Source: a virus
Reading direction: 5' to 3' (one strand)
Length of the DNA: 64,000 nucleotides
IMG/VR virus record: IMGVR_UViG_3300032163_000001
Coordinates: 46,249 to 110,248 of that record
The notes under the pieces were generated by a model. That model did not search any database and was not told the origin of the DNA. It saw only the letters and a program-made list of their open reading frames with translations. Positions 7,022 through 64,000 of this stretch are shown here, piece by piece (within the stretch, counting starts at the first letter, position 1; the number at the start of each line of letters is the position of its first letter). The translations under genes and the position numbers were made by a program.

Positions 7022-7091
7022 GGAGGGTAATACTCTATAGTTAGTTCCATCTATAACTAGAACAAATATTAAAATTACTACGGAGAAAACT

Positions 7092-17899: not shown

Positions 17900-17900
17900 A

Positions 17901-18566
17901 ATGATTATCTATAAGGTCCAAAACAAAGTTAATGGTAAGATTTATATTGGACAAACTAAGTTTACGTTAGAAGAGAGAATTTTATACCATTTAAAAGTCG
18001 GAGATAGTCCAGCTTTTCATAATTCGATTAAAAAATATGGAATAGAAAATTTTGAAATTTCTATTATAGATTCAGCAAAAACTAAAGAAGAACTTAATGA
18101 CAAAGAAAAATACTGGATTAAGTTTTATGATTCTAATAATCGTATAAAAGGTTACAATTTGACAGATGGAGGTGATGGATTTAGCGGTTACGAATTTTCT
18201 GGAGAAAATAATCCAATGTACGGAAAACATCATTCAGAAGAAACTAAAGAAAATATTAGAAAAAGTAGACTTGGAAAACGTTTGCCTGATGAAGTAAAAG
18301 AGAAAATAAGGAGATCTATGACTGGAAAGAAGTTTCCAGAACATTCAAACATGATGAAAGGAGAAAATAACCCAGCGAAAAGATTAGAAGTAAGAGACAA
18401 AATAACTAAAGCTAAAACTGGAAAGTCAAATACGAAGATTGTAGGAGAGAATAATCCAACTAAAAGACCAGAAGTAAGGAAAAAAATTAGTGAATCATTA
18501 AAAGGAAAACCTTCTGGAACTAAAGGGAGACATTGGAAATGGAGACAAAAACTCAAAGGATTGTAA
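17901..18566 (+). CDS. GIY-YIG homing endonuclease with NUMOD3 repeats
   Basis: MIIYKVQNKVNGKIYIGQT. NPMYGKHHSEETKENIRKS plus further basic repeats. Begins 2 nt after the JAB stop and overlaps the E1 start. Confidence 0.75.
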   Translation: MIIYKVQNKVNGKIYIGQTKFTLEERILYHLKVGDSPAFHNSIKKYGIENFEISIIDSAKTKEELNDKEKYWIKFYDSNNRIKGYNLTDGGDGFSGYEFSGENNPMYGKHHSEETKENIRKSRLGKRLPDEVKEKIRRSMTGKKFPEHSNMMKGENNPAKRLEVRDKITKAKTGKSNTKIVGENNPTKRPEVRKKISESLKGKPSGTKGRHWKWRQKLKGL

Positions 18567-19264
18567 TTTGCGGACTGGGAGGAATCGGTTCTATACTTTC
18601 AGAACATGTATCAAGATTTTTAAACTATAATAAATCGTCAATATTTGAGGTATTATTAGTTGATGGGGATAAGTATAAACCAAAAAATCTAGAAAGACAA
18701 GACTTTATTACATTTGGAAATAAAGCAGAAATAAAGAAAAATGAACTGGGTAGTAAGTTCCCAAATATGATATTTGAAAGTTTCCCAAAATTTGTAAATA
18801 AAGAAGTAGTTAAAGATATAATTAAAGAAAAAGATATAGTTCTTCTATGTGTAGATAATCATAAAACAAGAAAAATCGTTTCAGATTATTGTTCTGATAT
18901 AAATGATATAGTTTTAATTTCTGGCGGAAACGATTTATTAAATGGCAATATTCAATTGTTTGTGAAAAAAAATGGAGAGAAACTACTTCCAAATTTGACA
19001 GATTATCATAGAGAAATACAAAATCCAGAAGATAAATCTCCAGAAGAAAAAAGTTGTCAAGAGTTAGCAGAAAGTGAACCACAATTGTATTTTACAAATT
19101 TAATGGTCGCGTCTTTTATGTGTGCATCTCTCTACAACGTTCTAGACGAAAGGTACACTTATTCAGAAGTTTATTTTGATATTACAACTATGAAAGCAGA
19201 CTCTAAAATTAGAAAAGTAAAAGAACAGAAGAAAAACTTTATCGAAGCTAGCGTTAGAATATAG
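18533..19264 (+). CDS. ThiF/MoeB-type E1-like adenylyltransferase
   Basis: RIVICGLGGIGS...LLVDGDKYKPKNLERQ (Rossmann fold plus NLxRQ arginine finger). DIVLLCVDNHKTR matches the E1 D-x-D-N motif. Confidence 0.7.
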   Translation: MEMETKTQRIVICGLGGIGSILSEHVSRFLNYNKSSIFEVLLVDGDKYKPKNLERQDFITFGNKAEIKKNELGSKFPNMIFESFPKFVNKEVVKDIIKEKDIVLLCVDNHKTRKIVSDYCSDINDIVLISGGNDLLNGNIQLFVKKNGEKLLPNLTDYHREIQNPEDKSPEEKSCQELAESEPQLYFTNLMVASFMCASLYNVLDERYTYSEVYFDITTMKADSKIRKVKEQKKNFIEASVRI

Positions 19265-19347
19265 TACTAAAATATCAAGGAAAAGGAGGTGAAAAATAGT
19301 TTCTATTTATCTTTCTCAAAAATTCTTAATAAAAGGAGATTATTGTT

Positions 19348-19773
19348 ATGGCATCTTATGAAGAAAGAACTGTTGCAGAACTTAGGGGAATTTGTCGTGA
19401 AAAAGGAATTCCTGGAATGTCGAAGGCTAGAAAAGATGATATTATAGAAGCTTTGAGAAGTCGCAAAGGATCATCTACACCTCGAGACAAAAAAGAAAAA
19501 ATTATAACTGAATTACATTCTTCTATCTTTAGATCTGATGGTCGTATTAGTAAGGTTGAAACTACAGTTCATGTGTCTGCTGGTGCAGCAAGTTTTAATC
19601 AACCTTTAGTTGGAAAGAATGTTGGACAGGCTGCAGAAATTTACAAACATATACTTAATGTTGATCCGCTAGAGATTAATGCTCTAGTTAATGGTAGAGC
19701 TGTCGAATCAGATTATGTTTTGAGATCTGGAGATAACCTTGAGTTTCTGAAACCTGCTTCAAGAAAAGGATAG
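19348..19773 (+). CDS. candidate ubiquitin-like modifier: Rho-N/SAP-like N-domain plus ThiS/MoaD-like beta-grasp ending in Gly
   Basis: N-terminal TVAELRGICREKGIPGMSKARKDDIIEAL (Rho_N-like). C-terminal INALVNGRAVESDYVLRSGDNLEFLKPASRKG* follows the ThiS pattern (N..V.R...L.DGD.I), with a terminal Gly. Confidence 0.45.
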   Translation: MASYEERTVAELRGICREKGIPGMSKARKDDIIEALRSRKGSSTPRDKKEKIITELHSSIFRSDGRISKVETTVHVSAGAASFNQPLVGKNVGQAAEIYKHILNVDPLEINALVNGRAVESDYVLRSGDNLEFLKPASRKG

Positions 19774-19786
19774 AAAAATAGTAAAA

Positions 19787-19850
19787 AAGGCTTGGAATTT
19801 TTTAGAAAGTATGTTATAATACTTTTTATAAGTTCCAAGCCTTCTTTTTC
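19787..19850 (+). terminator. 11-bp perfect inverted repeat (AAGGCTTGGAA/TTCCAAGCCTT) with 35-nt loop and T-tract
   Basis: Arms at 19787-19797 and 19833-19843, followed by CTTTTTC. Lies between the Ubl and the second E1-like gene. Confidence 0.4.
19792..19820 (+). promoter_or_regulatory. sigma-A-like promoter: TTGGAA, 17-nt spacer, extended -10 TGTTATAAT
   Basis: -35 element at 19792-19797, TG at 19812-19813, TATAAT at 19815-19820. Sits inside the loop of the inverted repeat above. Confidence 0.35.
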
Positions 19851-19866
19851 TAGAAAGGAGGTAGGA

Positions 19867-20763
19867 GTGAGAAAAGTTTCTTCAGTTGCAGTAGTTGGTC
19901 TAGGTAGTTTAGGTAGTTTTCTTTCTGATAGTTTATCAAAGGTTGAAACAATCGAAAAATTAGTTCTTATAGATTATGATACAGTTCAAGAAAAGAACTT
20001 GATCAACTCTGTTTATAGAAAAATAGACGTTGAAAGATTTAAAGTAAATGCTATGAGAGATATTATATTATCTAACAACCCTTGTCTGAAAGTATTGGTT
20101 GTTCAAGATAAGTATGATAATTTGAGAAGAACTTCTTCAAGGTGGTTACTTGTTCGTCCTGATGTAGATTTAGTAGTAGATTGTAGAGATTTTACATATG
20201 ATAGAACTGATGAAGTAGATGTTAGAATGTATATAACTTCTAGATACTTAGTATTAGATTGTAGAAAAGATGTTAGTTACAATAAACACTATGAAGGAAT
20301 GTACACTTCTCAACTAACTAAGACAGATTTAAGAAATGCAGCGCTTACAACTTGCTTATTAATTCAGAATGGATTGATTTTTGATTTAATTGAAAAGCAG
20401 TTAGTGCACAAAGTTGAACTAGATTATATTTGTAGGAAGACATCAGAAGTAATCCAAAATAAAGGAGATATGATTTTAGATTTAAAAGAAGATACTTCTA
20501 GCTTCTTAAACTTACCAGAATGTTCAGATCGTATTTTGGATGTGAACAAGAAACATAAGTTAACAATGTACTTTGGAGATAAAGAAAATTCTTTAATTTG
20601 GAAAGAAGTTCCACGAAATTCTCTACTAAATATTGAGGATGTTATTTCGTGCTTACGATCTATTATTAAACTTCCTTTTGTCTTTAACTATTATATTATT
20701 CTTCTAAAAAATAATTCCGATGGCTTCTATATTGAACTCATCCCAGAAACTGGAGCTGCCTAA
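19867..20763 (+). CDS. second ThiF/E1-like protein, probably degenerate (arginine finger missing)
   Basis: VAVVGLGSLGS...LIDYDTVQEKNLINSVY has NLINS in place of NLxRQ. DLVVDCRDFTYDRT is retained. GTG start with RBS AAAGGAGGTAGGA. Confidence 0.6.
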   Translation: MRKVSSVAVVGLGSLGSFLSDSLSKVETIEKLVLIDYDTVQEKNLINSVYRKIDVERFKVNAMRDIILSNNPCLKVLVVQDKYDNLRRTSSRWLLVRPDVDLVVDCRDFTYDRTDEVDVRMYITSRYLVLDCRKDVSYNKHYEGMYTSQLTKTDLRNAALTTCLLIQNGLIFDLIEKQLVHKVELDYICRKTSEVIQNKGDMILDLKEDTSSFLNLPECSDRILDVNKKHKLTMYFGDKENSLIWKEVPRNSLLNIEDVISCLRSIIKLPFVFNYYIILLKNNSDGFYIELIPETGAA

Positions 20764-20821
20764 AGATGTACTAAAATTTCTAAAAGAAGAAGTTGGGGAT
20801 AGTAATGGAAAGGAGGAGATT

Positions 20822-21175
20822 ATGATACACATCTTGAGAAAAAACATTGAGAAGTCTCCATTAGTTCCTGATACAATAATTCATAAAGATAAAGTCTTTA
20901 ATATTACATCTGTTGATCCAGAGTTTATAATAAATAAATATGAACTAATTTTTAACGATAATATTTTGAAGGGTGTTAGATTAGTTAATAGTAGACATCC
21001 AAACTGTGACCCAGAGAATGGAATGTTTTGTTTACCAGAAGGAATAAAAGATAGTATTTTTACTAAAGAAATGTATGAAAGATTAAAGTATATTATGAGA
21101 ACTTTTAATCTCGACAACTGTTATTTTATGCCATGGGATCGGTGTACATATACAAGGAGGTTTTTAGATGGATGA
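20822..21175 (+). CDS. UBC-like E2 conjugating enzyme (small)
   Basis: SRHPNCDPENGMFCLPEGI has the HPN-x(8-9)-C-L spacing of E2 active sites (compare HPNINSNGSICL). ATG with RBS AAGGAGGAG, preferred over the 20720 start in the track. Confidence 0.55.
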   Translation: MIHILRKNIEKSPLVPDTIIHKDKVFNITSVDPEFIINKYELIFNDNILKGVRLVNSRHPNCDPENGMFCLPEGIKDSIFTKEMYERLKYIMRTFNLDNCYFMPWDRCTYTRRFLDG

Positions 21176-22003: not shown

Positions 22004-24715
22004 ATGCCAGAACTGTTGGACATAGCAAAATTTTGTGAACACCTTAAAGAAGTATCGTCGATAAAAATAATGGATAGAAATGGAAAGTTCCATTCAGAGG
22101 GCTTATTTTCTGAACAGATTTTTGGCCCAATTAGAAACTATACATGCCAGTGTGGTATTTATTATGGTATATCAAGGTCAGGTGGTACTTGTTCTATATG
22201 CGACGTAGATATAGTTAATAGTTATGAAAGGAGAAGTAGATTTGCTAAAATAGTTTTACCTTTTAAAGTTGTAAACCCTTTGTTCTATGATCTTCTAGTT
22301 TATGCGGGGGGAAGTAACTTAATGGAATCAATTGACTTACTGATGAAAAACGAAAAAAGTGTTATGTATAAAGATGAAGGTGAATATGCAGTAACTACTG
22401 ACCATATAGATACATCAAAATTTGGTAGAGTTTGGGATCGAACAGAAGCCATTTATGAAATTGTTAATAGTTTAGCTGATGATTGTATAAAGTATAATGA
22501 TTCTCCTACTTGGGCTTTTGTAAAAGCTAATATAAGTAACTTACTAATTAGAGATATAATTGTACTTGCTCCAGATTTAAGACCAGTTACAAGGTCGTCT
22601 AATAAAAATAATCAAGTGGTAGACGAAGTTAATAGGTACTACATTCAAATTTTAACTAAAAAGACAATTATAAAAGATTCTATAGTAGAAGTTAATAGTA
22701 ATAAAGAATTGTTCTATCAATATTGGAGACAAGTCCAAAAAGACGTAAACGAATTATATACACATATTCTTAGTAAATTATCTAAGAAAGAGGGATTAAT
22801 TAGAGGTAATATTTTAGGTAAGAGGATTGACTTTTCTGGAAGGGCTGTTATTGTACCAGATCCAACGTTAACATTGAATGAATGTATATTACCATATACT
22901 ATGGCTTTAGAACTATATAAACTACAAATATCAAAGAGATTGATAGATCTTGGTAAATTTAAGTTTTTAAATAAAGCAATTGATTTTGTAGATGAATGTA
23001 TAGAATACAAAGACCCACAACTGTTCGATACAGTGAATGAAATTACTCAAGATGAAATGTGTTTGTTGAACAGACAACCATCTTTACATCGATTAAGTAT
23101 GGTGGGTTTTAAAATTAAATTGACAATGGATGATGTTATTAAAATTCACCCTCTAGTATGTTCTGGTTTTAATGCTGATTTCGATGGGGATCAAATGGCT
23201 GCTTATATTCCTGTTAGTAAAGAAGCTAAAAAAGAAATAATAGATAAGTTTCTAGTTACCAAGAATTTTGTTAATCCAGCTAATGGAAGTTTGACTACTA
23301 TTCCATCACAAGATATAATATTAGGAATTTACCTCCTAACGTCAAATCAATTTCCAGAGCTAACTAAAGAAGTTGAATATAAAGGAAAACTTATTCCGGA
23401 GTCAGTTAAAATATTTAACGAGTGTTTACCATTTGATTATTCGTTAGTTGAGGGAGTAGTTACTAGTAATAAGTTATTAAAAATATTAAACAATATAAAA
23501 GATACATATCCAGAAGGAGTAACAGCAATTGCTTTAGATAGAATTAAAGACTTAGGTTTTAAATATTCTACGTTATATGGTTGTACTATTTCTTTAGATA
23601 GTTGCGAAATTGAAACTTCGGATGAGTTTAAAAAGTTTCTCTATTGTTCAGATGATGTAACAGATCAGTTAACAAAAGTTTCTAGTGAAGAAACAGAACA
23701 GTTTTTAAAAGATAACTTTAAATATGCTTATATGGTTCAGTCTGGGTCAAGAGGGAACTGGGATCAAATTAGACAGTTAATTTTAACTAGAGGGTTTGTT
23801 TCTAATTTTGATGGAGAGATTGTTCCAACTCCAATAAAGAATAGTTTACTAGATGGACTAACAAGAGAGGAGTTTTTCAATTCAACTTATGGTTGTAGGA
23901 AAGGTTTACTTGATGTTGCTTTAAACACTGGAACATCAGGTTATCTTTCAAGAAAACTAGTCTTTGCTTGTGCAAATCTCCAAGTTGATCCAAGTTTAGA
24001 AGATTGTGGAACCACGGATTATTTAAATGTAGATGTTTCTAGTATAAAGAAAGCTAAGATGTTAGTAGATCGTTATTATTTTGATGGTTCCAAATTAGAG
24101 AAAATTACGAAAGAAAATTGTGAAGAACTAGTTGGGAAAAGAATTAAACTAAGAAGTCCAATATATTGTAAGAATTATGATTTATGTCATACATGTTATG
24201 GAGATCTTTTCAAACACACAAGTAGTAGATTCGCCGGAATTTTAGCAGCTCAGTCTTTAGGTGAATGTAATACTCAGCTTATTCTTAGAGTTTTTCATAC
24301 TAGTGGAGTTGCTGCTACTAGAGGTGAGCACGAAGAAATGAGGCAAAAAGATGTTATTGTTGACTTAAGTACTGCATCTAATTTACTACATAAAATTGAT
24401 AAGAATGAGACTCCAGAGAATTTGGTTTCCGAATTATTTGATGTTTACAATATGAGTAGAGATATTTATCATGTGCATTTTGAATGTGTAGTAAGTCAAT
24501 TACTTTGGGATGGTCCGTATAAATGGAGGATGTTAGATAATAGAGATAAAGTCAAACCTATATTTTGCAGTATTCAAAGTATTCCAAGTAAAGAGAGTTG
24601 GTTACTTGGATTAGGGTTTTCCAATCCAAAAACTCATATTATAAAAGGTTTAGTGTACAGAGGTAATTACAAAGGAATTTTCGACCAAATTTTGTTAGGA
24701 GAAAAGTTTTGTTAG
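22004..24715 (+). CDS. rpoC: multisubunit RNA polymerase beta'-like subunit (compact, 903 aa)
   Basis: Catalytic NADFDGDQMA motif. Zn-finger-like CQCG...CSIC near the N-terminus. RBS AAGGAGGTAG. Confidence 0.85.
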   Translation: MPELLDIAKFCEHLKEVSSIKIMDRNGKFHSEGLFSEQIFGPIRNYTCQCGIYYGISRSGGTCSICDVDIVNSYERRSRFAKIVLPFKVVNPLFYDLLVYAGGSNLMESIDLLMKNEKSVMYKDEGEYAVTTDHIDTSKFGRVWDRTEAIYEIVNSLADDCIKYNDSPTWAFVKANISNLLIRDIIVLAPDLRPVTRSSNKNNQVVDEVNRYYIQILTKKTIIKDSIVEVNSNKELFYQYWRQVQKDVNELYTHILSKLSKKEGLIRGNILGKRIDFSGRAVIVPDPTLTLNECILPYTMALELYKLQISKRLIDLGKFKFLNKAIDFVDECIEYKDPQLFDTVNEITQDEMCLLNRQPSLHRLSMVGFKIKLTMDDVIKIHPLVCSGFNADFDGDQMAAYIPVSKEAKKEIIDKFLVTKNFVNPANGSLTTIPSQDIILGIYLLTSNQFPELTKEVEYKGKLIPESVKIFNECLPFDYSLVEGVVTSNKLLKILNNIKDTYPEGVTAIALDRIKDLGFKYSTLYGCTISLDSCEIETSDEFKKFLYCSDDVTDQLTKVSSEETEQFLKDNFKYAYMVQSGSRGNWDQIRQLILTRGFVSNFDGEIVPTPIKNSLLDGLTREEFFNSTYGCRKGLLDVALNTGTSGYLSRKLVFACANLQVDPSLEDCGTTDYLNVDVSSIKKAKMLVDRYYFDGSKLEKITKENCEELVGKRIKLRSPIYCKNYDLCHTCYGDLFKHTSSRFAGILAAQSLGECNTQLILRVFHTSGVAATRGEHEEMRQKDVIVDLSTASNLLHKIDKNETPENLVSELFDVYNMSRDIYHVHFECVVSQLLWDGPYKWRMLDNRDKVKPIFCSIQSIPSKESWLLGLGFSNPKTHIIKGLVYRGNYKGIFDQILLGEKFC

Positions 24716-24725
24716 GAGAATCGCT

Positions 24726-25043
24726 ATGCCTAAAATACCTAAAGAAAAAGAGCCTATTGATTATCATAATTTATCAACTTTTAAACACAGAGTAAAAGAG
24801 TTTAGTTACATAGCAGAGACATTGCGAGATCTAAGGAAACAAATTCTTAAAGATTTGAGAACTATTGATTTTAACTTAGAAGAAGTTCTTCCATATTTTT
24901 ATCGTAAACAGAGGGAGGGTTATACATCTGATATTACTAACACTCACTTAGTTGCTGATTGTGAATACGTTATTTCTAAATATGAGCGAATCTTAAAACA
25001 ACATGAAATAGAAATAGTTCTTTCAAATGGTGTACCCATTTAA
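24726..25043 (+). CDS. hypothetical protein between the RNAP subunit genes
   Basis: 105-aa ORF. Confidence 0.4.
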   Translation: MPKIPKEKEPIDYHNLSTFKHRVKEFSYIAETLRDLRKQILKDLRTIDFNLEEVLPYFYRKQREGYTSDITNTHLVADCEYVISKYERILKQHEIEIVLSNGVPI

Positions 25044-25060
25044 ATCAATAAGGAGGAAAA

Positions 25061-28000
25061 ATGATAGAAATAATAAACCCTTACTATAAACTGAACGAAG
25101 ACAAAAATGTATTCAAAATAAGAGAAGATGAATATCAAAAATTAGAATCTTCAGTTAGGGAAATTCTTAAAGCCGCTGAAGAGTTAGGTTTTACGATCAC
25201 AGAATTCGGTATTAGAGATCCAAGAGTTTTTCCATCTAATGAACTTGACAGAACTCTAAAGAAAAATCTTGTAATTAAACTACAAAAAGGTAATGCTGAA
25301 GTAGATTTAACTATGGCTTTTCCTAAATTAATTGATTCAAACTACATAATGATAAATGGAAGAAGAAAGATACCTTTATTTCAGTTATTTGATATACCAG
25401 TAGTTACGAGGGGAAAGAATATTAAGATAAGAACGAATGTTGCAACTATAATGATTTCTGTAGAAAAAAATTATCCACATGTTTCTATTAGTTTGTTAGG
25501 AAAAAAAGTCCCACTGTCATTATTAATGTTTTGTTACTACGATCGAGAGTATCTTGAATCAACATTTCATTTATCAGAAATAGAGGAAGAAGTACAAGTT
25601 AAAAGTTTGCTTGATGTTCTTGTGTACGATTTGAAGAGTCTCTCAGATTCTGAACCTGAAACAACTAAAATAGACTTTATCAAAGAACTTGGAAAATCTT
25701 ATTCTAAATATGATGCTTTATCAAAAGGAGAAGATGTAGTTTATTCTTTAGATTTGATTTTAAAGACTGATATAATGTCAGCAAAGTTTTTTAAGACTGG
25801 GTCAATTCTATCTGAAATAGTTGAAGTTATTAGAGGAGAAGGTCTAGATGATAAAGATTATACAAATAAAAGGATTAGATGTCTTGAATATATGATTTTG
25901 TCTAAAGTATCTAAAGTAGTCTTTGATTTGTGTATGGCATCTAGAAAAGCTAGAACAGTTAAATTTAGCACTAGTTCTTCTCAAATTTTATCTGATTGTA
26001 ATGTATCAGATATTATACAATTTGATTTTTCTATTAATCCAATTGATGAACTGACAAAATTAACAAGAACTAGTTTGATAGGACCAGGAGGATTTAATAG
26101 AGAAAATGTTCCAAAACATTTAAGAGATGTTTGTCCAACTATGTTTGGAAGAGTTTGTCCTGTAGATACTCCAGATAGAGAAAATTGTGGTGTTCTACAA
26201 GATTTAGTTCCAAACGTAAATTTAGATGAGAACTTAAGGTTTGGAGATCCTCTAAATGAACCAATATCTATTCCCGTTTCTATGGTTCCATTTCTAGAAC
26301 ATGATGATCAAACCAGGTTACAGATGTCTTCTTCTCAGATGAGACAAGCAATATCTTTAGTTAAATTTGATACACCAATGATTCAATCTGGTTGCGAAGG
26401 ATTATATACTGATCAAACACAATTTTTAAAGAGAGCTAAAAAAGATGGAGAAGTTTTATACTATGATAATAAGTATTTAATAGTAGTTTATGAAGATAAA
26501 ACTTTAGAAATTTTTGAACTCCCATACAGAAGAATATATGTAGAAAACTTAGATTATGTGTCTGGTTTGTATTTTAAACAAGGGGATAAGTTTAAGAAAG
26601 GAGATATTCTATTTGAGAGTATTTTCTGTAACAATGGTAAGATTAATATTGGAAAGAATTTACTAACTGTTATTATGAGTTACGGTGGTTATAATTACGA
26701 AGATGGAATTTTAATTTCTGATAAACTAGTTAAAGATGCAGATCAAAGATTTACTTCTTTACATTTTATAGATCTTTCTTTTACTCTGTCAAAGAATAAA
26801 GTTCTGTTAGACTTACCTTATAGGACTAAAGAGGAAGAAGAAATAGAGAAAGTAAAGAAAGAGAAAATATATAAACCACTTCCAAATCCCAGAGGGGAGC
26901 ACTCAAAATCTTTATTTGAAGTTCTTAGTATGAGAACGCCGTATGCAATTCTTAAAGAAATACCTGTTGGTCCATCAGATTATTACTCTTTATTTGAAGA
27001 GCAAATGCCTTTAACTATAAAGAAACCTTTTGTTTTTGTGACTGATGTTAATGTTTATGCAAATGAATGGAATCAGACATTTAAAGAGTTTAATCATTGG
27101 ATGGAAAAGAAAATCGAAGAGCAAAAGAAATATCAAAATTCTATTGCGGAGATAGTTCGAAATACTTTACCAAAAGATGCTGCGAATAGTATTATTAGAG
27201 AGAAGCTGTTAGATAAGTTTGGTAACGAAGAAAATTACAAAATAAAGGGAGAAAAAATTAATGGAACTTACATAGAGATTTTTGGTATATTCACTAGAGC
27301 AATAGCAGTTGGTGATAAGATTGGAAATAGACATGGAAATAAAGGTGTAATTTCTAGAATCCTTCCACACCACATGATGCCAAAGTTAGCAGATGGGAGA
27401 CATGCTGAAATAGTTATAAACCCACTAGGTATTCCATCTAGAATGAATATTGGTCAAGTGTTTGAAGCTCACTTAGCAATGGCACTAGAAAACTTGAAGA
27501 AGAATATGCTACAGATGTTGAAAGATGGAAAGAGTAGACAAGAAATTGGAGAGTATTTATTAAACTTTATATTTCTAATTGATAATACCAAAGATAATTG
27601 GTATTTTTCTCAATTTAAAAGTCAATTAGATAATGAAGAAATAGATGAAAAATTTATTCAAGATTTGGTTTTGATACAACCTCCATTTGAATCTGCCTCA
27701 AAAGAAATGATCAAAAATGCCATGAACTATACTAATACTCCTTATAAAGAGAAAGTTTACTTACCAGAGTATGGTAGAGAAACAATAGAACCAGTTGCAA
27801 TTGGATATATAAACTTCTTTAGAATGGTTCATATAGCAGAAAATAGATTAGCTGCTAGAGGTATTGCTTCATATGCAAGAAGAACTATGCAACCATTAGG
27901 AGGTAGAAAAAATAAAGGAGGTCAAAGGTGTGGAGAAATGGAAACTTGTTGTATAATCGCTCATGACGCACCACACAACTTAAAAGAAATGTTGACAACT

Positions 28001-28150
28001 AAATCAGATTGTATAGATCTAAAGAATTTGTTAATTAGAAAAGAAATTGAGAGTGAACCATCAAGTAGAGAACAGAAAGTTATGGATGAAAGGCCCGAGT
28101 CTGTTAAGTTACTAAATGATTATCTCTTAGTCATGGGGGTAAAGAAATAG
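25061..28150 (+). CDS. rpoB: multisubunit RNA polymerase beta-like subunit (1029 aa)
   Basis: GDKIGNRHGNKGVISRILP matches the beta-subunit catalytic-site motif. RBS AAGGAGGAAAA. Confidence 0.85.
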   Translation: MIEIINPYYKLNEDKNVFKIREDEYQKLESSVREILKAAEELGFTITEFGIRDPRVFPSNELDRTLKKNLVIKLQKGNAEVDLTMAFPKLIDSNYIMINGRRKIPLFQLFDIPVVTRGKNIKIRTNVATIMISVEKNYPHVSISLLGKKVPLSLLMFCYYDREYLESTFHLSEIEEEVQVKSLLDVLVYDLKSLSDSEPETTKIDFIKELGKSYSKYDALSKGEDVVYSLDLILKTDIMSAKFFKTGSILSEIVEVIRGEGLDDKDYTNKRIRCLEYMILSKVSKVVFDLCMASRKARTVKFSTSSSQILSDCNVSDIIQFDFSINPIDELTKLTRTSLIGPGGFNRENVPKHLRDVCPTMFGRVCPVDTPDRENCGVLQDLVPNVNLDENLRFGDPLNEPISIPVSMVPFLEHDDQTRLQMSSSQMRQAISLVKFDTPMIQSGCEGLYTDQTQFLKRAKKDGEVLYYDNKYLIVVYEDKTLEIFELPYRRIYVENLDYVSGLYFKQGDKFKKGDILFESIFCNNGKINIGKNLLTVIMSYGGYNYEDGILISDKLVKDADQRFTSLHFIDLSFTLSKNKVLLDLPYRTKEEEEIEKVKKEKIYKPLPNPRGEHSKSLFEVLSMRTPYAILKEIPVGPSDYYSLFEEQMPLTIKKPFVFVTDVNVYANEWNQTFKEFNHWMEKKIEEQKKYQNSIAEIVRNTLPKDAANSIIREKLLDKFGNEENYKIKGEKINGTYIEIFGIFTRAIAVGDKIGNRHGNKGVISRILPHHMMPKLADGRHAEIVINPLGIPSRMNIGQVFEAHLAMALENLKKNMLQMLKDGKSRQEIGEYLLNFIFLIDNTKDNWYFSQFKSQLDNEEIDEKFIQDLVLIQPPFESASKEMIKNAMNYTNTPYKEKVYLPEYGRETIEPVAIGYINFFRMVHIAENRLAARGIASYARRTMQPLGGRKNKGGQRCGEMETCCIIAHDAPHNLKEMLTTKSDCIDLKNLLIRKEIESEPSSREQKVMDERPESVKLLNDYLLVMGVKK

Positions 28151-28309
28151 TGAGTGATGGCGTTCTGGTGAAAACGCTAAGTTGTACGTAGCTTATAGGA
28201 TAACCCTTCAAGACCAAGGATCAGCATAGACCAGTCCGAGGTACAGAGAAAAGCAATAAGGTCTATTAAAACTTGGTTATCAAAGTAGGTTCGAATCCTA
28301 CTCACTCAC
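28151..28309 (+). ncRNA. tRNA-like structured RNA (7-bp acceptor closure, D-arm-like, canonical GGTTCGAATCC T-arm) with about 85 nt of extra internal sequence
   Basis: TGAGTGA at 28151-28157 pairs with TCACTCA at 28302-28308. T-arm GTAGG-TTCGAAT-CCTAC at 28285-28301. Too long for a plain tRNA, and no tmRNA tag ORF is visible. Confidence 0.35.
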
Positions 28310-28312
28310 TAG

Positions 28313-28433
28313 GAGAAAATAGATCAGTGACCTATGTAGACCTGAACTGATGGACGCATCAGGTATTTGCTGGACGCACTGCACTTAGTCAATACAGGTG
28401 GAACGTCCTGGCTGGTCTATTTTCTCATTTTTT
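28313..28433 (+). ncRNA. structured RNA closed by a 15-bp stem followed by a U-tract (large intrinsic terminator or stable ncRNA)
   Basis: GAGAAAATAGATCAG at 28313-28327 pairs with CTGGTCTATTTTCTC at 28412-28426 (one GU pair), then ATTTTTT. Internal sub-hairpins CTGATG/CATCAG and GGACG/CGTCC. Confidence 0.35.
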
Positions 28434-28519
28434 AAGAAAGGAGGTTAAAATTGGTTTGGTGTAATCATTACGGTTAAGAATAGCAAAGGGTAAATTAGAT
28501 AAAAGAAAGGAGGAAGTTA

Positions 28520-28798
28520 ATGTTTTTCTTAGAAGTTGTTGAACTTGTTCTAGGTATTTTGATCTTAGCATTTTTCGTTACTCAAGTTCTTATTCCTATA
28601 TGGAAAAGGACTCCTTTGTTTCCATTCTTTAGATCTACACGTAAGAAACTTGAAGAAGAACTTGAAAAGGTAAAAGAAGAAACAGATAATGCGCTGATTG
28701 AACGTGAAATTGAGAAAGAAAAAGAAAAGGTTAGTAAAATTAAACCAAAAACTGAAAAAAAGAAGGAGGATAAAGATGATGGGACAAAAACAATTTAA
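28520..28798 (+). CDS. small membrane protein with charged C-terminal tail
   Basis: N-terminal TM helix LVLGILILAFFVTQVLIPIW followed by a KE-rich tail. Confidence 0.4.
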   Translation: MFFLEVVELVLGILILAFFVTQVLIPIWKRTPLFPFFRSTRKKLEEELEKVKEETDNALIEREIEKEKEKVSKIKPKTEKKKEDKDDGTKTI

Positions 28799-30041
28799 TG
28801 GACTTCCAACAGGTATTTCTTTAGGCAGAAAAGGTTTTGTCATAGTTCTAGGGTTCCTTGCATTTTTCATTGTTCTAGTATTATCATTTAGTATTTTCGA
28901 GAACTTAGATGCAGGTAGTATAATGGTGATACAATCACCACTAAAAGGAAACTTAACTTGGTATACAACTCCTGGAGTAAAATGGCAAGGTTTTGGAAAA
29001 GTTAGTAAATATATGAAGAGAGATCAGTTTTGGTTCTCCCTAAGAAAAGATCAAGGAACTAAAGCAGATGAGTCGATTAAAATTCGTTTTAATGATAATA
29101 GTCACGCATCTATATCTGGTTCAATTGCATGGGAGATGCCAGTAGATTCTAAAAATCTTACTAATTTACATGTAAAATATGGAAGTCAACATGCAGTCCA
29201 ACAACAACTAGTTAGAACAGTAATTGAGAAATCTGTTTATATGACAGGTCCAACGATGAGTTCTACTGAATCTGCTTCTGAAAAAAGAAATGAACTTTTA
29301 AATCTTATTGAAGATCAAATTCAGAAAGGAGTGTATAGAACTGAAACAATTGAAGAGAAGAAACCTGACCCAATTACAGGCGTAGTTAAGACTTTTAAAG
29401 TCGCTAAAGTTGTAGTTGATAAAGCAGGACTTCCTCAAAGAGTTGAACAATCACCTTTAAGCGATTTTGGAATCAAAACTTTTAACTTATCAATTAACGA
29501 AGTTAAATACGATGACTTAGTAGAAAAACAAATTCAACAACAACAGGCAGCTTTAATGCAAGTTCAAATAGCTGTTGCTAGAGCTAAAGAAGCTGAACAG
29601 CAAGCTATCACTGTTGCTAAGAAAGGTGAAGCAGAAGCCGCTGAAGCTAAATGGAAACAGGAAGTTATAAAAGCAACAGAAGTGACTGCTGCTGAACAAA
29701 GAAAGAGAGTTGCAGAATTAGATGCTCAAGCTGCTGAACAGACTAAAAGGAAAGAGATTCTTTTAGGTGAAGGAGAAGGAGAAAGAAAAAGATTGGTTAT
29801 GAATGCAGATGGAGCTTTAACTCAGAAACTTGCAGCATATGTAGAAACTCAAAAGTATTGGTCAGATGCAATTTCAAAGTATCAAGGTAATTGGGTTCCT
29901 GTTTATGCATCGGGAGGAACAGGACAAGCTGGATTTGGAGCTCAAGCAATGATGGAATTTTTATCTCTTAAAGCTGCTAAAGATTTAGGTTTAGATATAG
30001 GTATGAAAACTGGGAAACAACTTAAACAAGAACAGAAATAG
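28776..30041 (+). CDS. SPFH/band-7 (prohibitin/HflK-like) membrane protein
   Basis: N-terminal TM helix, SPFH-like core, C-terminal Ala/Glu/Gln-rich coiled coil. ATG with RBS AAGGAGGA preferred over 28698. Confidence 0.6.
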   Translation: MMGQKQFNGLPTGISLGRKGFVIVLGFLAFFIVLVLSFSIFENLDAGSIMVIQSPLKGNLTWYTTPGVKWQGFGKVSKYMKRDQFWFSLRKDQGTKADESIKIRFNDNSHASISGSIAWEMPVDSKNLTNLHVKYGSQHAVQQQLVRTVIEKSVYMTGPTMSSTESASEKRNELLNLIEDQIQKGVYRTETIEEKKPDPITGVVKTFKVAKVVVDKAGLPQRVEQSPLSDFGIKTFNLSINEVKYDDLVEKQIQQQQAALMQVQIAVARAKEAEQQAITVAKKGEAEAAEAKWKQEVIKATEVTAAEQRKRVAELDAQAAEQTKRKEILLGEGEGERKRLVMNADGALTQKLAAYVETQKYWSDAISKYQGNWVPVYASGGTGQAGFGAQAMMEFLSLKAAKDLGLDIGMKTGKQLKQEQK

Positions 30042-30051
30042 ATTGTTTATT

Positions 30052-30135
30052 ACTGGGTCTTCAGAAGTTTATTACTACCAGCGGCGCTTGAGAGGCGCGT
30101 TGTCCCCATCGTTCTGAAGACCCAGTTTTATTTTA
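30052..30135 (+). terminator. rho-independent terminator (15-bp stem)
   Basis: ACTGGGTCTTCAGAA at 30052-30066 pairs with TTCTGAAGACCCAGT at 30113-30127, then TTTATTTT. Confidence 0.6.
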
Positions 30136-30137
30136 GA

Positions 30138-30320
30138 GAAGGAGAAGTTATGATAAATAGTGTTTATCTTTGGAGTAGTACGATAGTTTTTTTAGTTTTA
30201 TTTGTTACCTGGACATCAAAAAATTTACTTAATATTTTACTTAAAATAATATTTTTCTTTTTAGCATGTATGGGAGCTTTCAACCTTATGTTGTTATATC
30301 GTTTTGTAATAAAAGTTTAA
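30138..30320 (+). CDS. putative small two-helix membrane protein (60 aa)
   Basis: RBS GAAGGAGAAG. Hydrophobic throughout. Missing from the ORF track. Confidence 0.35.
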   Translation, partial: EGEVMINSVYLWSSTIVFLVLFVTWTSKNLLNILLKIIFFFLACMGAFNLMLLYRFVIKV

Positions 30321-30335
30321 TGGAAGGAGGATGGA

Positions 30336-31112
30336 ATGAAAAAGATTTTTTCTATTTTGGTAATACTACTTTTCTTGCTTACCTCTGCAGATTTAGTTTT
30401 CTCTAGAAGTGGTAGTAGCAGTAGCAGCAGTAGCAGTAGCGGTGGATCTAAAAGTTTTTCTGGAGGATCTAGTGGGGCAAGCAAAAGTTCTGGGAGTGGA
30501 TCTAAAAGTTTTTCAGGATCTGGATCTAAAAGTAGCGGAAAGACTTTTTCCGGAAGTGATTCAAAAAGTGCAACACAAACTGCTAGACCAGGTTTTGATT
30601 CGGTATCAGGCAAAGCCAAAGCTCAGGAACAATCATCAAAAAATTATTCTACATGGAAAGTATCTCATGGTATTCAAGATAAAAAATACAGTCGAGAAAT
30701 GGCTTCTACAAGAGATGTTAGAGAGAGAACAGTGTTTGTAAATCGACAACCTACTGGATATTATGTTCAACCTACTACAGTTGTTGTATATCGAGATTAC
30801 TATAGTAGTAACTTTTTAATGTATGCAAGCTGGTTCTGGCTATTCCACCACTGGGATAGTGTAGATCACTCAAGATTTCAAGATGCAAAGATAAAAGAAC
30901 TAGAAACAAAGTTTAAGGAACTAGAAGCTAAAGGAACAAAAAGAGATTTGAATTACAATGAATCTGGAATTGATCCAGACTTACAATATAAGAAAGACGC
31001 AGCTGGATATGATAAAGGATTAAGTACATTAGGTATAATTTTTATAGTGTTAGGAATTATAGCATTGATTTTATTAGTTGTTTGGTTTATATTTAGAAGA
31101 ATAAGATACTAA
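30336..31112 (+). CDS. secreted or membrane-anchored protein with Ser/Gly-rich SKSFSGSG repeats and C-terminal TM anchor
   Basis: Signal-peptide-like N-terminus, poly-Ser then (G)SKSFSG repeats, C-terminal TM IIFIVLGIIALILLVVWFIF. Confidence 0.5.
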   Translation: MKKIFSILVILLFLLTSADLVFSRSGSSSSSSSSSGGSKSFSGGSSGASKSSGSGSKSFSGSGSKSSGKTFSGSDSKSATQTARPGFDSVSGKAKAQEQSSKNYSTWKVSHGIQDKKYSREMASTRDVRERTVFVNRQPTGYYVQPTTVVVYRDYYSSNFLMYASWFWLFHHWDSVDHSRFQDAKIKELETKFKELEAKGTKRDLNYNESGIDPDLQYKKDAAGYDKGLSTLGIIFIVLGIIALILLVVWFIFRRIRY

Positions 31113-31125
31113 AAAAGGAGGGTAA

Positions 31126-31770
31126 ATGACTGAAGAAAAGAAAAGATTTACTCTTTGGGAACATTGGACTCATAAAGATAAAAATCCTTCTACAGAAAAA
31201 AAGTTAGAGGATGAGATTTCGAATCCTTTAAAACTACATTTAGGAGATTTTATAATTCCAAAGATGTTAGAACCAACAGAGGGGAAAGATCATAAAGTGC
31301 TCGAAGTAGTAGAAGTTGTAGAATATGATAGACTTATTTCAAGAGAACACTTCTATCTTACAGACTATCTACTTAGAGATAAAGATGGAACTCATGTACT
31401 TCGATCAAATCTAGCTGATCAAAAAGTTTCTCTTTTATGGTTGGATATCTATTATGAGTCTGAATTTAAAGAAGAAATTTTAGATGCAGTAAAACACAAA
31501 ACTTTTAAAATTGATGAAGAAGATGGAACGCATATTGAATATCAAACTCTTAACTCTGGAGAAGATGGGTTCTTATGTGAACAAAGAATTGTATCAAAAG
31601 ATAAAGATTTTATACAAAAAGAAGAAGCTAAATACTGGGATTTTTATAGAGATGTAAACGAAGGTGTTACAGAACTTTTCTTTGTAGAAGTTAATGAAGA
31701 AACAGGATGGATAATGATGTTGAAAGGATTTGTAATTTCAGAGTATGATATTGAAATCATTCCAAAATAA
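31126..31770 (+). CDS. hypothetical protein
   Basis: 214-aa ORF with RBS AAAGGAGGG. Confidence 0.45.
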   Translation: MTEEKKRFTLWEHWTHKDKNPSTEKKLEDEISNPLKLHLGDFIIPKMLEPTEGKDHKVLEVVEVVEYDRLISREHFYLTDYLLRDKDGTHVLRSNLADQKVSLLWLDIYYESEFKEEILDAVKHKTFKIDEEDGTHIEYQTLNSGEDGFLCEQRIVSKDKDFIQKEEAKYWDFYRDVNEGVTELFFVEVNEETGWIMMLKGFVISEYDIEIIPK

Positions 31771-31781
31771 GGAGAAAAAAA

Positions 31782-32024
31782 ATGGAAGAAGAAAAAGAAG
31801 TAAAAGAAGTAAAAGAAATTTCGTCAGAAGAAGAAGTAATTGAACTACTAAAACAAGGTCCTATAAATTCTCATCAATATACTCCTGCTGAATGGCACAA
31901 AATAGCTCTTGTTCTTCCAAAACTTAAGAGTAAAGGATTAGTAGAATCGGAGAAAACAGCGATTCAAGGTGCGAAAGGTTCTTTAAAAGTGACTATTTGG
32001 AAATTAAAAGAACAAGTATCATAA
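31782..32024 (+). CDS. hypothetical small protein
   Basis: 80-aa ORF with RBS AAGGAGAAAAA. Confidence 0.4.
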   Translation: MEEEKEVKEVKEISSEEEVIELLKQGPINSHQYTPAEWHKIALVLPKLKSKGLVESEKTAIQGAKGSLKVTIWKLKEQVS

Positions 32025-32037
32025 AGAAGGAGAAGAA

Positions 32038-32466
32038 ATGAAAGAAGTAAATGTAGATGTCAAACAGGTATTAGAAATTGTGAAAGAAAACAAAGATAAA
32101 CATAATGTTATTTATCAAGCTGCATTAGAAGGCTATTGGAAAAAGGCTGAGAAATTGTTAAGACAAAAATTAAGAGAGGTAAGCAAACATAAGAAGATTG
32201 AAGTATTTTTAGAACTTCCATTTCCTGAAAATCACGAAAAAGATTATGACAGAGTAATTAGAATGCTAGAGTTATCAACAGATAAAGTAGTAACTTTAGA
32301 TCAACTTTCTTTTTCTCAAATTGTACTTAACGACTGGCAGTGGAAAGAGTCATTTAAATTTGTTAACTCTGGTTATATCGGATTTACGGGTCCAGCTGGT
32401 TCAGAAGGAGCTACTGGTAGATGTGGTGGTTCTCCAGATCTAAAAGATACTTTCGATAAATTTTAA
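32038..32466 (+). CDS. hypothetical protein
   Basis: 142-aa ORF with RBS GAAGGAGAAG. Confidence 0.4.
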   Translation: MKEVNVDVKQVLEIVKENKDKHNVIYQAALEGYWKKAEKLLRQKLREVSKHKKIEVFLELPFPENHEKDYDRVIRMLELSTDKVVTLDQLSFSQIVLNDWQWKESFKFVNSGYIGFTGPAGSEGATGRCGGSPDLKDTFDKF

Positions 32467-32490
32467 ATACTTAAAAAGAAGGAGGTAGTT

Positions 32491-33168: not shown

Positions 33169-33178
33169 AGGAGATGGT

Positions 33179-33346: not shown

Positions 33347-33372
33347 ACTAACTGTTTTAAAAAGAGAAGATG

Positions 33373-33444
33373 AAAAGTCAAGTCAGTGAATAACTAATAA
33401 AAGAAAAGTAAACCAAAAATTGTGAGTGTTCACTGACTTGACTT
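33373..33444 (+). repeat. 17-bp perfect inverted repeat with 38-nt loop
   Basis: AAAGTCAAGTCAGTGAA at 33373-33389 pairs with TTCACTGACTTGACTTT at 33428-33444. Confidence 0.55.
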
Positions 33445-33466
33445 TTCCTAATTTGGAGAGAATAGA

Positions 33467-38999: not shown

Positions 39000-39079
39000 T
39001 TTAGGATCCCGGTTTTAACCCTTTTATCTGGATCCATTTTAAGAGAACAAATAGAAAATGAGAATAAGGAGAATGTTAT

Positions 39080-39990: not shown

Positions 39991-40017
39991 TTTAAAAATC
40001 GGTAATTTTTATTCTTA

Positions 40018-41283
40018 GTGAACAAATTTAAAAGAGTAATAGAAAGGGTTTTAAAGATGCCACAAAAAGAAAGAACACTTATTCCAAGTAGAAGATACGA
40101 TTTACAACTAAAGATTAAAGGTTTAGATTACAGTAATGATTTATATCGTCTTAGACTAACTTCATCTGTGAACTCTCCTTACCAAATAGTTAGTTTAGAT
40201 ATGTTTATTGATCCAAACGATATCATCTTAGAAAGAATATTTGGAAGAGACCCTTTAAAACTTAATATCAGATTATTAGGAGATGTCGAATATATATCAG
40301 AACAAATTGACCTCGAACTTATGTATATTAAAGGTGGATTCCAACTTGGTATGAAAAATGAATATTCTGAAATCAGACAAAGTGATAGAAGTTCATTTAA
40401 TATTATAGCTGTTTGCAGAAACCCCTTTAAAACAATTACTTATCCAGTTAATGAAGTTTATTTGGATACAACGATTGAAGGTATTTTGGAAGATTTGGTA
40501 AGTAAGTCGGGGTCTACTCTACAAATTGATAAAGAAGGACTTAACGATGAAAAAATAGATCAAATTATAGTTCCAAGCACTACTTTATATAAATCTATTC
40601 AATACTTAGATCGTAGGTTTGGGATCTTTAGAGGAGCTTGTGTTGTTTTTTGCCGATATGATAATAAATTGTTTATCAAAAATATAACTTCTAAAACAAA
40701 GATGAACCAAACTTTTACAGTCTATCAGTTAGCTAGTGATAGTCCAGACAATACAAAAATTATTTCTTCGAGTTTAGATGGACATACTTTTTATACTTAT
40801 GATAAGATAGATACACGTTACTCAAACAATGTTAAGTTTTCAGTAGCTGCTAATATAGAAAAGTATATAATGACTCCTAAAGATCAATTATACTATGTGT
40901 TGGAAAAGAACCTTAAAGATATCTGTTCAGAAAATGGAGTTATTTATCAAAATAAAAATGTAGAATTCGATAGTATTCTTGAACAAAGAGAAACGTCTAT
41001 CAAAGATCCTTGTGCATATGAGACATCAGATACATTCGTAGTTGCTAAGATGTCTAAGTATATTGCAAATATGTCGACTGTTAGTGTTAATTTAGAAAGA
41101 AATCTTCCAATACTAAACCTTATAAACATTGGAGAAGCAGTTAAGTTGGTTTGTAAAACTGTTGAATATATAGATGTATCTGGAAAATATATTTTAAAGT
41201 CAACTGATATTGATTTCAGGAAAGAGAAAGATTGGCAGTGCGTAGCAAAATTAGATCTCATTCGAACTAACCAAACAATTTAA
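40018..41283 (+). CDS. hypothetical protein (421 aa)
   Basis: Long ORF following the terminator; start uncertain (GTG at 40018 or ATG at 40057). Confidence 0.45.
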   Translation: MNKFKRVIERVLKMPQKERTLIPSRRYDLQLKIKGLDYSNDLYRLRLTSSVNSPYQIVSLDMFIDPNDIILERIFGRDPLKLNIRLLGDVEYISEQIDLELMYIKGGFQLGMKNEYSEIRQSDRSSFNIIAVCRNPFKTITYPVNEVYLDTTIEGILEDLVSKSGSTLQIDKEGLNDEKIDQIIVPSTTLYKSIQYLDRRFGIFRGACVVFCRYDNKLFIKNITSKTKMNQTFTVYQLASDSPDNTKIISSSLDGHTFYTYDKIDTRYSNNVKFSVAANIEKYIMTPKDQLYYVLEKNLKDICSENGVIYQNKNVEFDSILEQRETSIKDPCAYETSDTFVVAKMSKYIANMSTVSVNLERNLPILNLINIGEAVKLVCKTVEYIDVSGKYILKSTDIDFRKEKDWQCVAKLDLIRTNQTI

Positions 41284-41319
41284 TCTAGACTTGTTGAACA
41301 AATAGAAAAGGAAGAAACT

Positions 41320-61754: not shown

Positions 61755-61840
61755 CTCAGTTAACCTCCTTAGAACTGTACGTTAAATACAGTTTGTTTCT
61801 TTTTTATTTGTTCTAAAACCATAGATGAATAAGTTTAACT

Positions 61841-62595: not shown

Positions 62596-62613
62596 AAGAC
62601 CTACCTACATTTT

Positions 62614-63345
62614 TTATTTGTTCTTCTCTCTAGATAGTTTTTGTTTCCTTTGTGCCCACGCAAGTTTGTTAGAATCTCTGTTTTTCTTTTTACTTTCTTC
62701 TGAATGCTTCTTTCCAAACATTCCATTCTTTACTCCTAAAACTGCTTCACCTATCTTCTTTCTTACTTCCAGTCTTTTCGATGAGTTATTTTCTCCCGAA
62801 ACATTTGGTCTTTTCTTCCCTTTCCTTATTTCACTTAATTTCTTTCTATGTTCTTCAGACAAAGGCCCTGTATTCTTTCCTTTCATTGACTGACTTCTTT
62901 TTCTCTTATGTTCCTCAGATTGTGGTAAAAAATGTTTCCCTTTGTTAGATTCACCTATCTTCTTCTTATGTTCTTGAGATTTAGGTTTCTTTAGTTTCTC
63001 TTTTACTCCTGGTTTATTCATAGCCTCTTTCGTCCTTCGACTTATTTCGCTTTTAACTAGTTTAGATGGATTTACACCTTCTCCTCCATATGTTAAATTA
63101 TATCCATTTGGATAAACAGAGTTAAAATATGAAATCCAATAAATTTCTTTTTCATTCAAAATTTCTTTATCTACACCTATATCTATAAATGAAATATCAA
63201 AAGATTGAATACCATACTTTCTAAGTACATTTGAAATATAAGATTTCTCTGTTAAATGTTGTTTAACTCTATATTCTAACGTAAATTTAGTTTGTCCAAT
63301 ATAAGACTTCCCGTTAACTTTATTAGTAATCTTATAAATTATCAT
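62614..63345 (-). CDS. GIY-YIG homing endonuclease
   Basis: MIIYKITNKVNGKSYIGQTKFTLEYRVKQHL. C-terminal basic NUMOD-like repeats. Confidence 0.75.
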   Translation of the reverse strand: MIIYKITNKVNGKSYIGQTKFTLEYRVKQHLTEKSYISNVLRKYGIQSFDISFIDIGVDKEILNEKEIYWISYFNSVYPNGYNLTYGGEGVNPSKLVKSEISRRTKEAMNKPGVKEKLKKPKSQEHKKKIGESNKGKHFLPQSEEHKRKRSQSMKGKNTGPLSEEHRKKLSEIRKGKKRPNVSGENNSSKRLEVRKKIGEAVLGVKNGMFGKKHSEESKKKNRDSNKLAWAQRKQKLSREKNK

Positions 63346-63882: not shown

Positions 63883-64000
63883 TTTTGTTCCTTTAGTATT
63901 TGTTCTAAAACTTGGAAAAACACTGGTATTCGAACTAGTTACTATATATATTAATTACTGAATAGAGAGGACATTTATTTTGTATGAACAGAAAAAGGAG

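Follow-up and report, generated by a model that had tools for sequence, protein, structure and literature searches.

The 64,000-nucleotide (nt) stretch of viral DNA analyzed here, positions 46,249 to 110,248 of the IMG/VR record IMGVR_UViG_3300032163_000001 (hereafter the window), is predicted to encode a phage-borne RNA polymerase (RNAP) core of the bacterial type, with unsplit β′ and β subunits whose catalytic motifs are conserved. The gene for the β′-like protein (903 amino acids [aa]; 22004..24715, plus strand) lies ahead of that for the β-like protein (1029 aa; 25061..28150, plus strand), and both correspond to the small (“b-type”) paralogue of the multimeric RNAP-encoding Caudovirales (mReC), a phage group described from metagenomes (Weinheimer and Aylward 2020, Nat Commun 11:4506, PMC7481178). 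An open reading frame (ORF) of 105 aa without known relatives (24726..25043, plus strand) occupies the variable slot between the two genes. We infer with good confidence that the pair forms the core of the small mReC polymerase, that this enzyme would assemble without an α subunit, and that the phage would encode a second polymerase besides it.

Integrity and affiliation of the RNAP subunits

The similarity of both proteins to RNAP subunits far exceeds chance. Pfam recognizes Rpb1 domains 2, 3, 4, and 5 in the 903-aa protein (E values of 1e-32, 7e-11, 8e-6, and 1e-23, respectively), together with a weak match to Rpb1 domain 1 under the Pfam cutoff, and Rpb2 domains 3, 6, and 7 in the 1029-aa protein (E values of 1.5e-12, 3e-46, and 1.6e-11). 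The top PDB matches are bacterial β′ (E value of 9e-97) and bacterial β (E value of 3e-81), and archaeal and eukaryotic subunits are much weaker matches (∼1e-25 for β). The catalytic Mg2+-binding motif NADFDGD occupies β′ residues 390 to 396 (23171..23191, plus strand), with no variation at N390, D392, D394, G395, or D396 in 25 and 40 family members. The β active-site motif GNRHGNKG occupies residues 755 to 762 (27323..27346, plus strand), with no variation from N756 to G762 in 22 family members. The original prediction, which had recognized a β′-like protein with the first motif ahead of a β-like protein with the second, is therefore borne out by both the ORFs and the motifs. Shine-Dalgarno-like sequences (GGAG/AAGGAGG) lie 5′ of all three ORFs, that of the 105-aa ORF being AGGAGA, 7 nt upstream.

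Both subunits are full-length homologues contained in single ORFs and are not fragments, in agreement with their earlier description as unsplit. In hhalign comparisons with family profiles, β′ residues 14 to 846 align with E. coli β′ residues 35 to 1004, a part that holds the N-terminal Zn finger, the clamp coiled-coil (aligned across E. coli residues 265 to 307), the catalytic loop, the bridge helix, and the first trigger-loop helix. Sequence similarity stops at E. coli residue 1004, ahead of the C-terminal region. An AlphaFold2 model of β′, built with 40 family members, has a mean predicted local distance difference test score of 75.5, and Foldseek searches with this model place bacterial β′ chains on top (E value of ∼1e-39). 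Because these model-based alignments cover the entire target chains, the short C terminus of β′ appears to be condensed rather than absent. In the second subunit, β residues 260 to 1007 align with E. coli β residues 440 to 1338, and profile alignment detected no similarity to E. coli β in the N-terminal 260 aa; the elements retained include the fork-loop, EHDDQTR, GYNYEDG, and GNRHGNKG. The compactness noted earlier is also real: the subunits measure 903 and 1029 aa (1932 aa in sum), versus 1407 aa for E. coli β′ and 1342 aa for E. coli β, are 25 to 35% shorter than bacterial ones, and lack the E. coli lineage-specific insertions.

The sequence read for this phage extends from −6,287 relative to the window (window −6.3 kb) to the window end at 64 kb, ∼70 kb in all. 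It had been suggested that additional split RNAP fragments might be found elsewhere in the genome, and none was present in these ∼70 kb: phmmer searches with the window subunits and E. coli RpoB and RpoC found no other RNAP-like ORF, either within the window or across the 10-kb flanking regions of relatives, and no RNAP fragment lies in the stretch upstream of the window to −6,287 (contig L167). PHROG and Pfam scans of window neighbors, covering part of the ORFs and without gp68/gp226 as a query, returned no RNAP-annotated family besides β′ and β. The Pfam results for genes from window −6.3 kb to 64 kb contain no α, ω, or σ family, as the original prediction had stated for the vicinity of the pair. 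A conserved 280-aa gene located after β in relatives was considered as an accessory factor and rejected, as it encodes the GTP cyclohydrolase FolE2.

That the pair is a piece of a phiKZ/AR9-type split enzyme, or that it represents cellular rpoBC genes misplaced in a phage bin, is extremely improbable. Split jumbo-phage subunits form PHROG families that match portions of the two proteins (E values of 1e-38 to 1e-22), but single ORFs span the entire conserved β′ and β, with no other fragment in the 70 kb. This explanation is also contradicted by the gene order, which is opposite to that of rpoBC, by phage genes on both sides of the pair, by the same synteny in 82 viral contigs, and by two independent assemblies, namely a 74,338-bp Logan contig (SRR9617649_8986604) and a 111,530-bp ENA contig, that are 100% identical to the window across 17.3 kb and 14.9 kb, respectively. 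Within the sequence read, both versions of this explanation are already refuted.

A search with the β′ protein gave thousands of matches, the best 120 of which are all ∼900 aa long and 57 to 75% identical and lie on contigs of ≤304 kb; three of these 120 reach 74 to 75% on contigs of <4 kb, and the rest are ≤64% identical. The β′ subunit is 53 to 62% identical to those of 82 related IMG/VR loci, and β is 47 to 62% identical to those of relatives; among GenBank phages, identity to the window subunits is never above ∼33%. Three of the related contigs (L013, L015, and L019) match entries in the mReC table (WOR52_10000459, Ga0180432_10000070, and Ga0180432_10000164; Supplementary Data 2 of Weinheimer and Aylward 2020, PMC7481178), and the window β′ is 59 to 60% identical to theirs versus ∼27 to 31% to bacterial β′. 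The subunit sizes fit the smaller of the two main classes in that table (β of 1000 to 1030 aa and β′ of 900 to 930 aa), and the window shares with mReC phages adjacent β and β′ genes found by standard cellular models and the setting of T4-like tailed-phage contigs. On the basis of identity to the listed contigs and shared synteny, the window enzyme is placed in the published mReC clade, of which it is a new and divergent member, and is not regarded as a new kind of system. The two-gene enzyme is not new as a kind because the clade has already been published (PMC7481178); mReC has been known since 2020, and what is new here is this divergent member.

The order of the two genes had been described as inverted. 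It is the reverse of the bacterial rpoB-rpoC order, but it is not unusual: β′ lies directly 5′ of β on the same strand in 82 of 82 related IMG/VR loci, the second (large) RNAP set of the clade is also ordered β′ and then β, and the order in the cultured phage YerA41 is β′N, β′C, and β. This arrangement is constant throughout a large phage clade and is not peculiar to this window.

The 105-aa ORF reported between the subunit genes is present, and its slot varies among relatives. In ∼30 loci, the gap between β′ and β is either empty or eliminated by an overlap of the stop and start codons; one family of ∼60-aa ORFs fills it in 27 loci and unrelated small ORFs do so in others. Five loci have ORFs of 260 to 340 aa in this position, and the two of these that were scanned show NUMOD3 or HNH homing-endonuclease features. 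The 105-aa ORF itself has no match in Pfam, PHROG, or PDB, no tblastn match in GenBank phages, and no homologue among the ORFs of the 82 related, syntenic loci, and an identity as an ω-like or otherwise conserved subunit was rejected on these grounds. It is most simply read, from its sequence and distribution, as a singleton in an insertion hot spot and not as a polymerase subunit. Mobile elements appear to have hit the RNAP gene region repeatedly; an intein is present in one β′ homologue from the database (P0052, 1322 aa).

A second polymerase in the clade

Relatives of this phage hold a second, larger polymerase. This large set (IMG/VR loci L087 to L119) consists of β′ of ∼1000 to 1010 aa followed by β of ∼1354 to 1376 aa, both unsplit; it retains the catalytic DFDGD signature and shares ∼29% identity with the small set. 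At least 15 related contigs hold both sets, counted as contigs recovered in both the small-set and the large-set IMG/VR scans, among the matches listed. On these, the large set is on the same strand as the small one and 23.5 to 50.0 kb upstream of it (median, 37.3 kb), and the spacing in 13 of 15 exceeds 28.3 kb, the distance examined here. The mReC supplementary table gives two RNAP sets for several single contigs, visible only as “a” and “b” rows, and the main text contains no discussion of paired sets, gene order, the variable slot, or a promoter (PMC7481178). In a 2023 study, a distantly related viral genome was noted to contain a second fragment of an RNAP gene (β subunit) (PMC10159854).

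By analogy with these relatives, the phage studied here very probably also carries a larger unsplit β′/β operon, ∼25 to 50 kb upstream. The phage shares a collinear run of gyrA, PTPS, helicase, SbcD, and SbcC genes with its closest long relative, a 143-kb contig whose large set ends 20.9 kb upstream of gyrA. Given this collinearity, the large set would be expected between approximately −31 and −24 kb relative to the window, and the Logan contig of this phage extends to window −45 kb, spanning the expected site. Alternatively, the window pair could be the sole phage RNAP, the large set having been lost or never present and the two genes working with a further factor. No second set is found from window −6.3 kb to 64 kb, as this alternative predicts. 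In addition, the phage is an outlier of its clade (≤64% identity besides the three short-contig matches, among the best 120), such that its gene content may differ, and 5′ of gyrA, small ORFs and a LAGLIDADG gene replace the gyrB of the closest relative. A sole RNAP is nevertheless very unlikely, in view of the presence of the two sets together on all of the at least 15 contigs found in both scans, 13 of them with the large set beyond 28.3 kb, and of the collinearity, which predicts a position well within a contig of this phage.

In three relatives, the large β′ is split at residue ∼780 into ORFs of 779 to 780 aa and 227 to 238 aa (L104, 2123-5154; L108, 5989-10011; L110, 6001-9320), and at two of these three loci an ORF (333 aa or 86 aa) is inserted between the halves; these loci represent natural split variants, the large β′ being unsplit otherwise. 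The large set also has conserved neighbors of its own (∼483, 150, 200, and 86 aa), which were compared by hhalign with the conserved neighbors of the small set. Accessory subunits common to both RNAP operons were rejected, as all hhalign probabilities were <3%, and the large-set neighbors have no Pfam or PHROG match.

Candidate promoter motif and possible roles of the two enzymes

In an analysis of k-mer enrichment over 575 upstream regions from all loci, GAACAAA was enriched besides Shine-Dalgarno words (54 observed versus 7 expected), and the aligned sites gave the consensus tttt-AGAACAAA-WWAWAAA. At a weight matrix score of ≥14 bits, the window contains seven sites versus 0.9 in shuffles, all of them sense oriented and 23 to 59 nt ahead of a gene start. 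The plus-strand sites are at 7060 (7054..7075; 15.2 bits; 32 nt before the gene at 7092-7979), 39045 (39039..39060; 18.4 bits; 35 nt before the gene at 39080-39541), 40020 (40014..40035; 14.7 bits; 37 nt before the start at 40057 of a conserved 408-aa gene), and 41296 (41290..41311; 16.2 bits; 24 nt before the gene at 41320-42192, after which comes the large terminase gene). In 10 relatives, the motif is also found ahead of the homologue of the 408-aa gene. The minus-strand sites are at 61813 (61798..61819; 20.9 bits; 59 nt before the gene at 61038-61754), 62623 (62608..62629; 18.1 bits; 28 nt before the gene at 62080-62595), and 63905 (63890..63911; 20.2 bits; 23 nt before the gene at 63676-63882). 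The first of these genes encodes a virion structural protein (phrog_21400, E value of 2e-12) and heads a minus-strand baseplate operon with gp25 and T4_baseplate genes downstream. With the weight matrix, no further site was found in the window from 7060 to 39045, where the RNAP genes are located.

Among the matches listed for relatives, the motif is located 410 to 660 nt 5′ of the large β′ in 22 of 29 loci, where it fronts a co-oriented ORF of ∼150 aa. At small-set loci, 67 of 69 motif sites are on the gene strand and most lie 9 to 12.7 kb downstream, with no site between −10 and −2 kb. Intrinsic terminators around the RNAP genes are at chance level. TAGTTCC was also considered as a promoter word and was rejected: it is enriched (20 versus 8.3), but 17 of its 20 occurrences, mostly coding, are not upstream of a gene, and three sites are upstream.

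We suggest the following mechanism. The small enzyme would assemble without α or ω, as do the non-virion RNAPs of phiKZ and AR9, and would need a phage-specific initiation (specificity) factor; the phiKZ and AR9 precedents have their own fifth subunit and no α (PMC7598289). Together with a second, larger enzyme of the kind found in relatives, it would support a phiKZ-like two-polymerase program. Tentatively, the small enzyme may be made inside the cell together with the replication genes and may read the clade-wide AGAACAAA-WWAWAAA promoter of the structural and large-polymerase operons, and the large enzyme would be a candidate for packaging in the virion. These roles are proposed because the motif is common to the large-set and structural operons and the small set lies among motif-less replication-type genes. 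The full proposal, in which this widespread and uncultured lineage runs a phiKZ-style program with two unsplit, α-less enzymes, the small one reading the motif and the large one packaged, and in which splitting at residue ∼780 models the origin of the phiKZ/AR9 architecture, is conceivable but doubtful.

The roles could also be reversed, with the small enzyme packaged in the virion and acting early and the large enzyme made early from AGAACAAA promoters and transcribing late genes. In phiKZ-type phages, the motif that can be found by bioinformatics belongs to early promoters, which the virion enzyme reads and which drive the non-virion RNAP genes (PMC7598289), and the easily found motif of this clade precedes the large-set operon in most of the loci counted above. 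Reversal is nonetheless unlikely: the window motif heads blocks containing virion structural, baseplate, and terminase genes, which are expected to be late, and it is missing from the 10 kb of replication-type genes 5′ of the small set, apart from sites between −2 and −1 kb in 10 of the 71 relatives.

Another possibility is that the phage core borrows a host σ factor, and perhaps host α or ω, in which case it would be a divergent substitute for rpoBC and not a polymerase that works on its own. The clamp coiled-coil of β′ is the main σ docking site in bacteria. In the window protein this element aligns throughout, the closest relative by far is bacterial RNAP, and no phage σ-like gene occurs in the Pfam results for window genes, all of which would suit dependence on the host. 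On the other side are an identity of only ∼30% to bacterial subunits, the unrecognizable N-terminal 260 aa of β, and the end of β′ similarity at residue 1004. Moreover, σ70-type promoter matches around the RNAP genes are at chance (70 versus 67.6 expected), and the phiKZ and AR9 precedents use their own fifth subunit without α (PMC7598289). Borrowing of host factors is decidedly unlikely in our assessment.

Several points weigh against the preferred reading, a small α-less mReC enzyme working beside a larger one. The second polymerase in this genome is deduced from relatives, the sequence read being window −6.3 kb to 64 kb, and 2 of the 15 relatives have the large set nearer than the 28.3 kb examined here. 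The 10 of 71 relatives in which the motif precedes the block of ThiF, 151-aa, β′, and β genes blur the early/late split, and the motif could instead serve the host polymerase or the other phage polymerase, or act as an RNA element. No specificity factor was recognized among the scanned genes, and the conserved clamp coiled-coil leaves room for a σ-like partner, possibly that of the host. There is no major capsid gene or PF07068 match among the window proteins scanned; the capsid gene may be located outside the window. Finally, mReC membership is based on identity to listed contigs and not on phylogeny.

Genomic setting and comparison with known systems

The window (G+C content, ∼30%) encodes a large terminase, gp25, T4-type baseplate proteins, and virion structural proteins, in addition to SbcCD, RNA ligase, and, at its start, an SNF2/Rad25-type helicase. 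The large terminase matches PHROG large-terminase families with an E value of 2e-32 and PF03237 with an E value of 0.0021 (18.2 bits, under the 22-bit cutoff). Upstream of the window, L167 encodes topoisomerase (gyrA), QueD/PTPS, the full helicase, and a LAGLIDADG endonuclease. The assemblies holding this phage are a 185,628-bp JGI contig and the Logan and ENA contigs described above; they jointly cover ∼190 kb, which suggests a T4-like tailed phage with a circularly permuted genome of ∼186 kb.

Just 5′ of the RNAP genes, window positions 16955 to 21175 hold a conserved cassette that resembles a ubiquitin-like conjugation system and is found in 60 to 75 of 82 relatives. It contains a JAB-like gene (16955-17899, a weak match), a first ThiF/E1-like gene (18533-19264), and a gene for a 141-aa protein with Rho_N/SAP similarity and a ThiS-like C terminus (19348-19773). 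These are followed by another ThiF/E1-like gene (19792-20763, plus strand; Pfam ThiF; homologues in 75 of 82 loci) and by a 151-aa ORF conserved upstream of β′ (20720-21175, plus strand; homologues in 67 of 82 loci), and a GIY-YIG/NUMOD3 endonuclease gene (17865-18566) lies within the cassette.

Three genes suggest a 7-deazaguanine (preQ0-type) pathway, possibly serving DNA modification: those for FolE2 GTP cyclohydrolase I (33943-34785; E value of 2e-59), which directly follows β in most relatives, a radical-SAM enzyme (10362-11414), and a PTPS/QueD homologue (L167 4819-5229, at about window −1470 to −1060). Between β and folE2 in the window are ∼5.8 kb (28151-33942) that are not present in relatives and that contain membrane-stress-type genes encoding an SPFH/Band-7 protein (28698-30041), a Ser/Gly-rich membrane protein (30336-31112), and a PspA/IM30 homologue (32491-33168; E value of 3e-41). 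Straight after β, positions 28151 to 28310 hold a tRNA-like element with an acceptor-like stem (GAGTGA/TCACTC), a canonical GGTTCGAATCC T-arm, and ∼100 nt extra in the middle. It was rejected as a tRNA, as it is called by neither ARAGORN nor Rfam and has a fold z-score of −0.64.

Homing-endonuclease-like genes are located at 5921-6520, 7092-7979, 17865-18566, 41320-42192, 53125-54003, and 62614-63345 and at L167 1-689; they are of the GIY-YIG/NUMOD3, NUMOD3-only, and MTES_1575/DUF559 types, with LAGLIDADG just upstream of the window. A 1151-aa tape-measure-like protein (44720-48175) has a VanY D-Ala-D-Ala carboxypeptidase domain (E value of 3e-8), which points to a host with peptidoglycan and hence to a bacterium. 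In contrast to this indication, one relative (P0116) was binned in a “Thorarchaeota” metagenome-assembled genome.

The system shares with those of phiKZ and AR9 that it is phage encoded, that it has two double-psi β-barrel subunits with no α, ω, or σ genes (here, from window −6.3 kb to 64 kb), and that an SNF2/Rad25-type helicase is encoded nearby (PMC7824862). Two paralogous polymerases per genome are the rule in phiKZ-type phages (PMC7824862), and this likeness is seen here in the relatives of the clade. However, each phiKZ/AR9 subunit is split into two or more polypeptides, whereas those of the window are unsplit. The split PHROG families (E value of 1e-38) also match far worse than the bacterial-type ones (E value of 1e-97), and the structural module of the window is T4-like and not phiKZ-like. 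The cultured Yersinia phage YerA41 (MW570730, ∼145 kb) likewise has a compact cluster with β′ ahead of β, and topoisomerase and helicase genes and a weakly ubiquitin-like ORF lie just 5′ of its RNAP cluster. Its β′ is split, however (556 and 518 aa), its β has 924 aa, and its subunits are 25 to 29% identical to the window proteins. Bacterial RNAP is the closest solved structure, and every catalytic motif checked is conserved; in contrast to bacterial rpoB-rpoC, the gene order is reversed, identity is ∼30%, the β N terminus has diverged, the β′ C terminus is apparently condensed, and no α, ω, or σ gene was found between window −6.3 kb and 64 kb.

To our knowledge, the phage multisubunit RNAPs studied biochemically (phiKZ, AR9, and PBS2) are all split into four or five pieces. 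Our understanding of how such enzymes assemble without α and find their promoters is still partial. The mReC enzymes, which are very abundant in metagenomes, pose this problem of assembly and promoter finding in its simplest form, that of two ORFs, and the compact 1932-aa pair is an attractive target for expression and cryo-electron microscopy and a good minimal model. The paired sets and their common promoter-like motif provide testable hypotheses on temporal control. If true, the sporadic splitting of the large β′ at residue ∼780 beside mobile ORFs would show a route to the split architecture of the phiKZ and AR9 polymerases.

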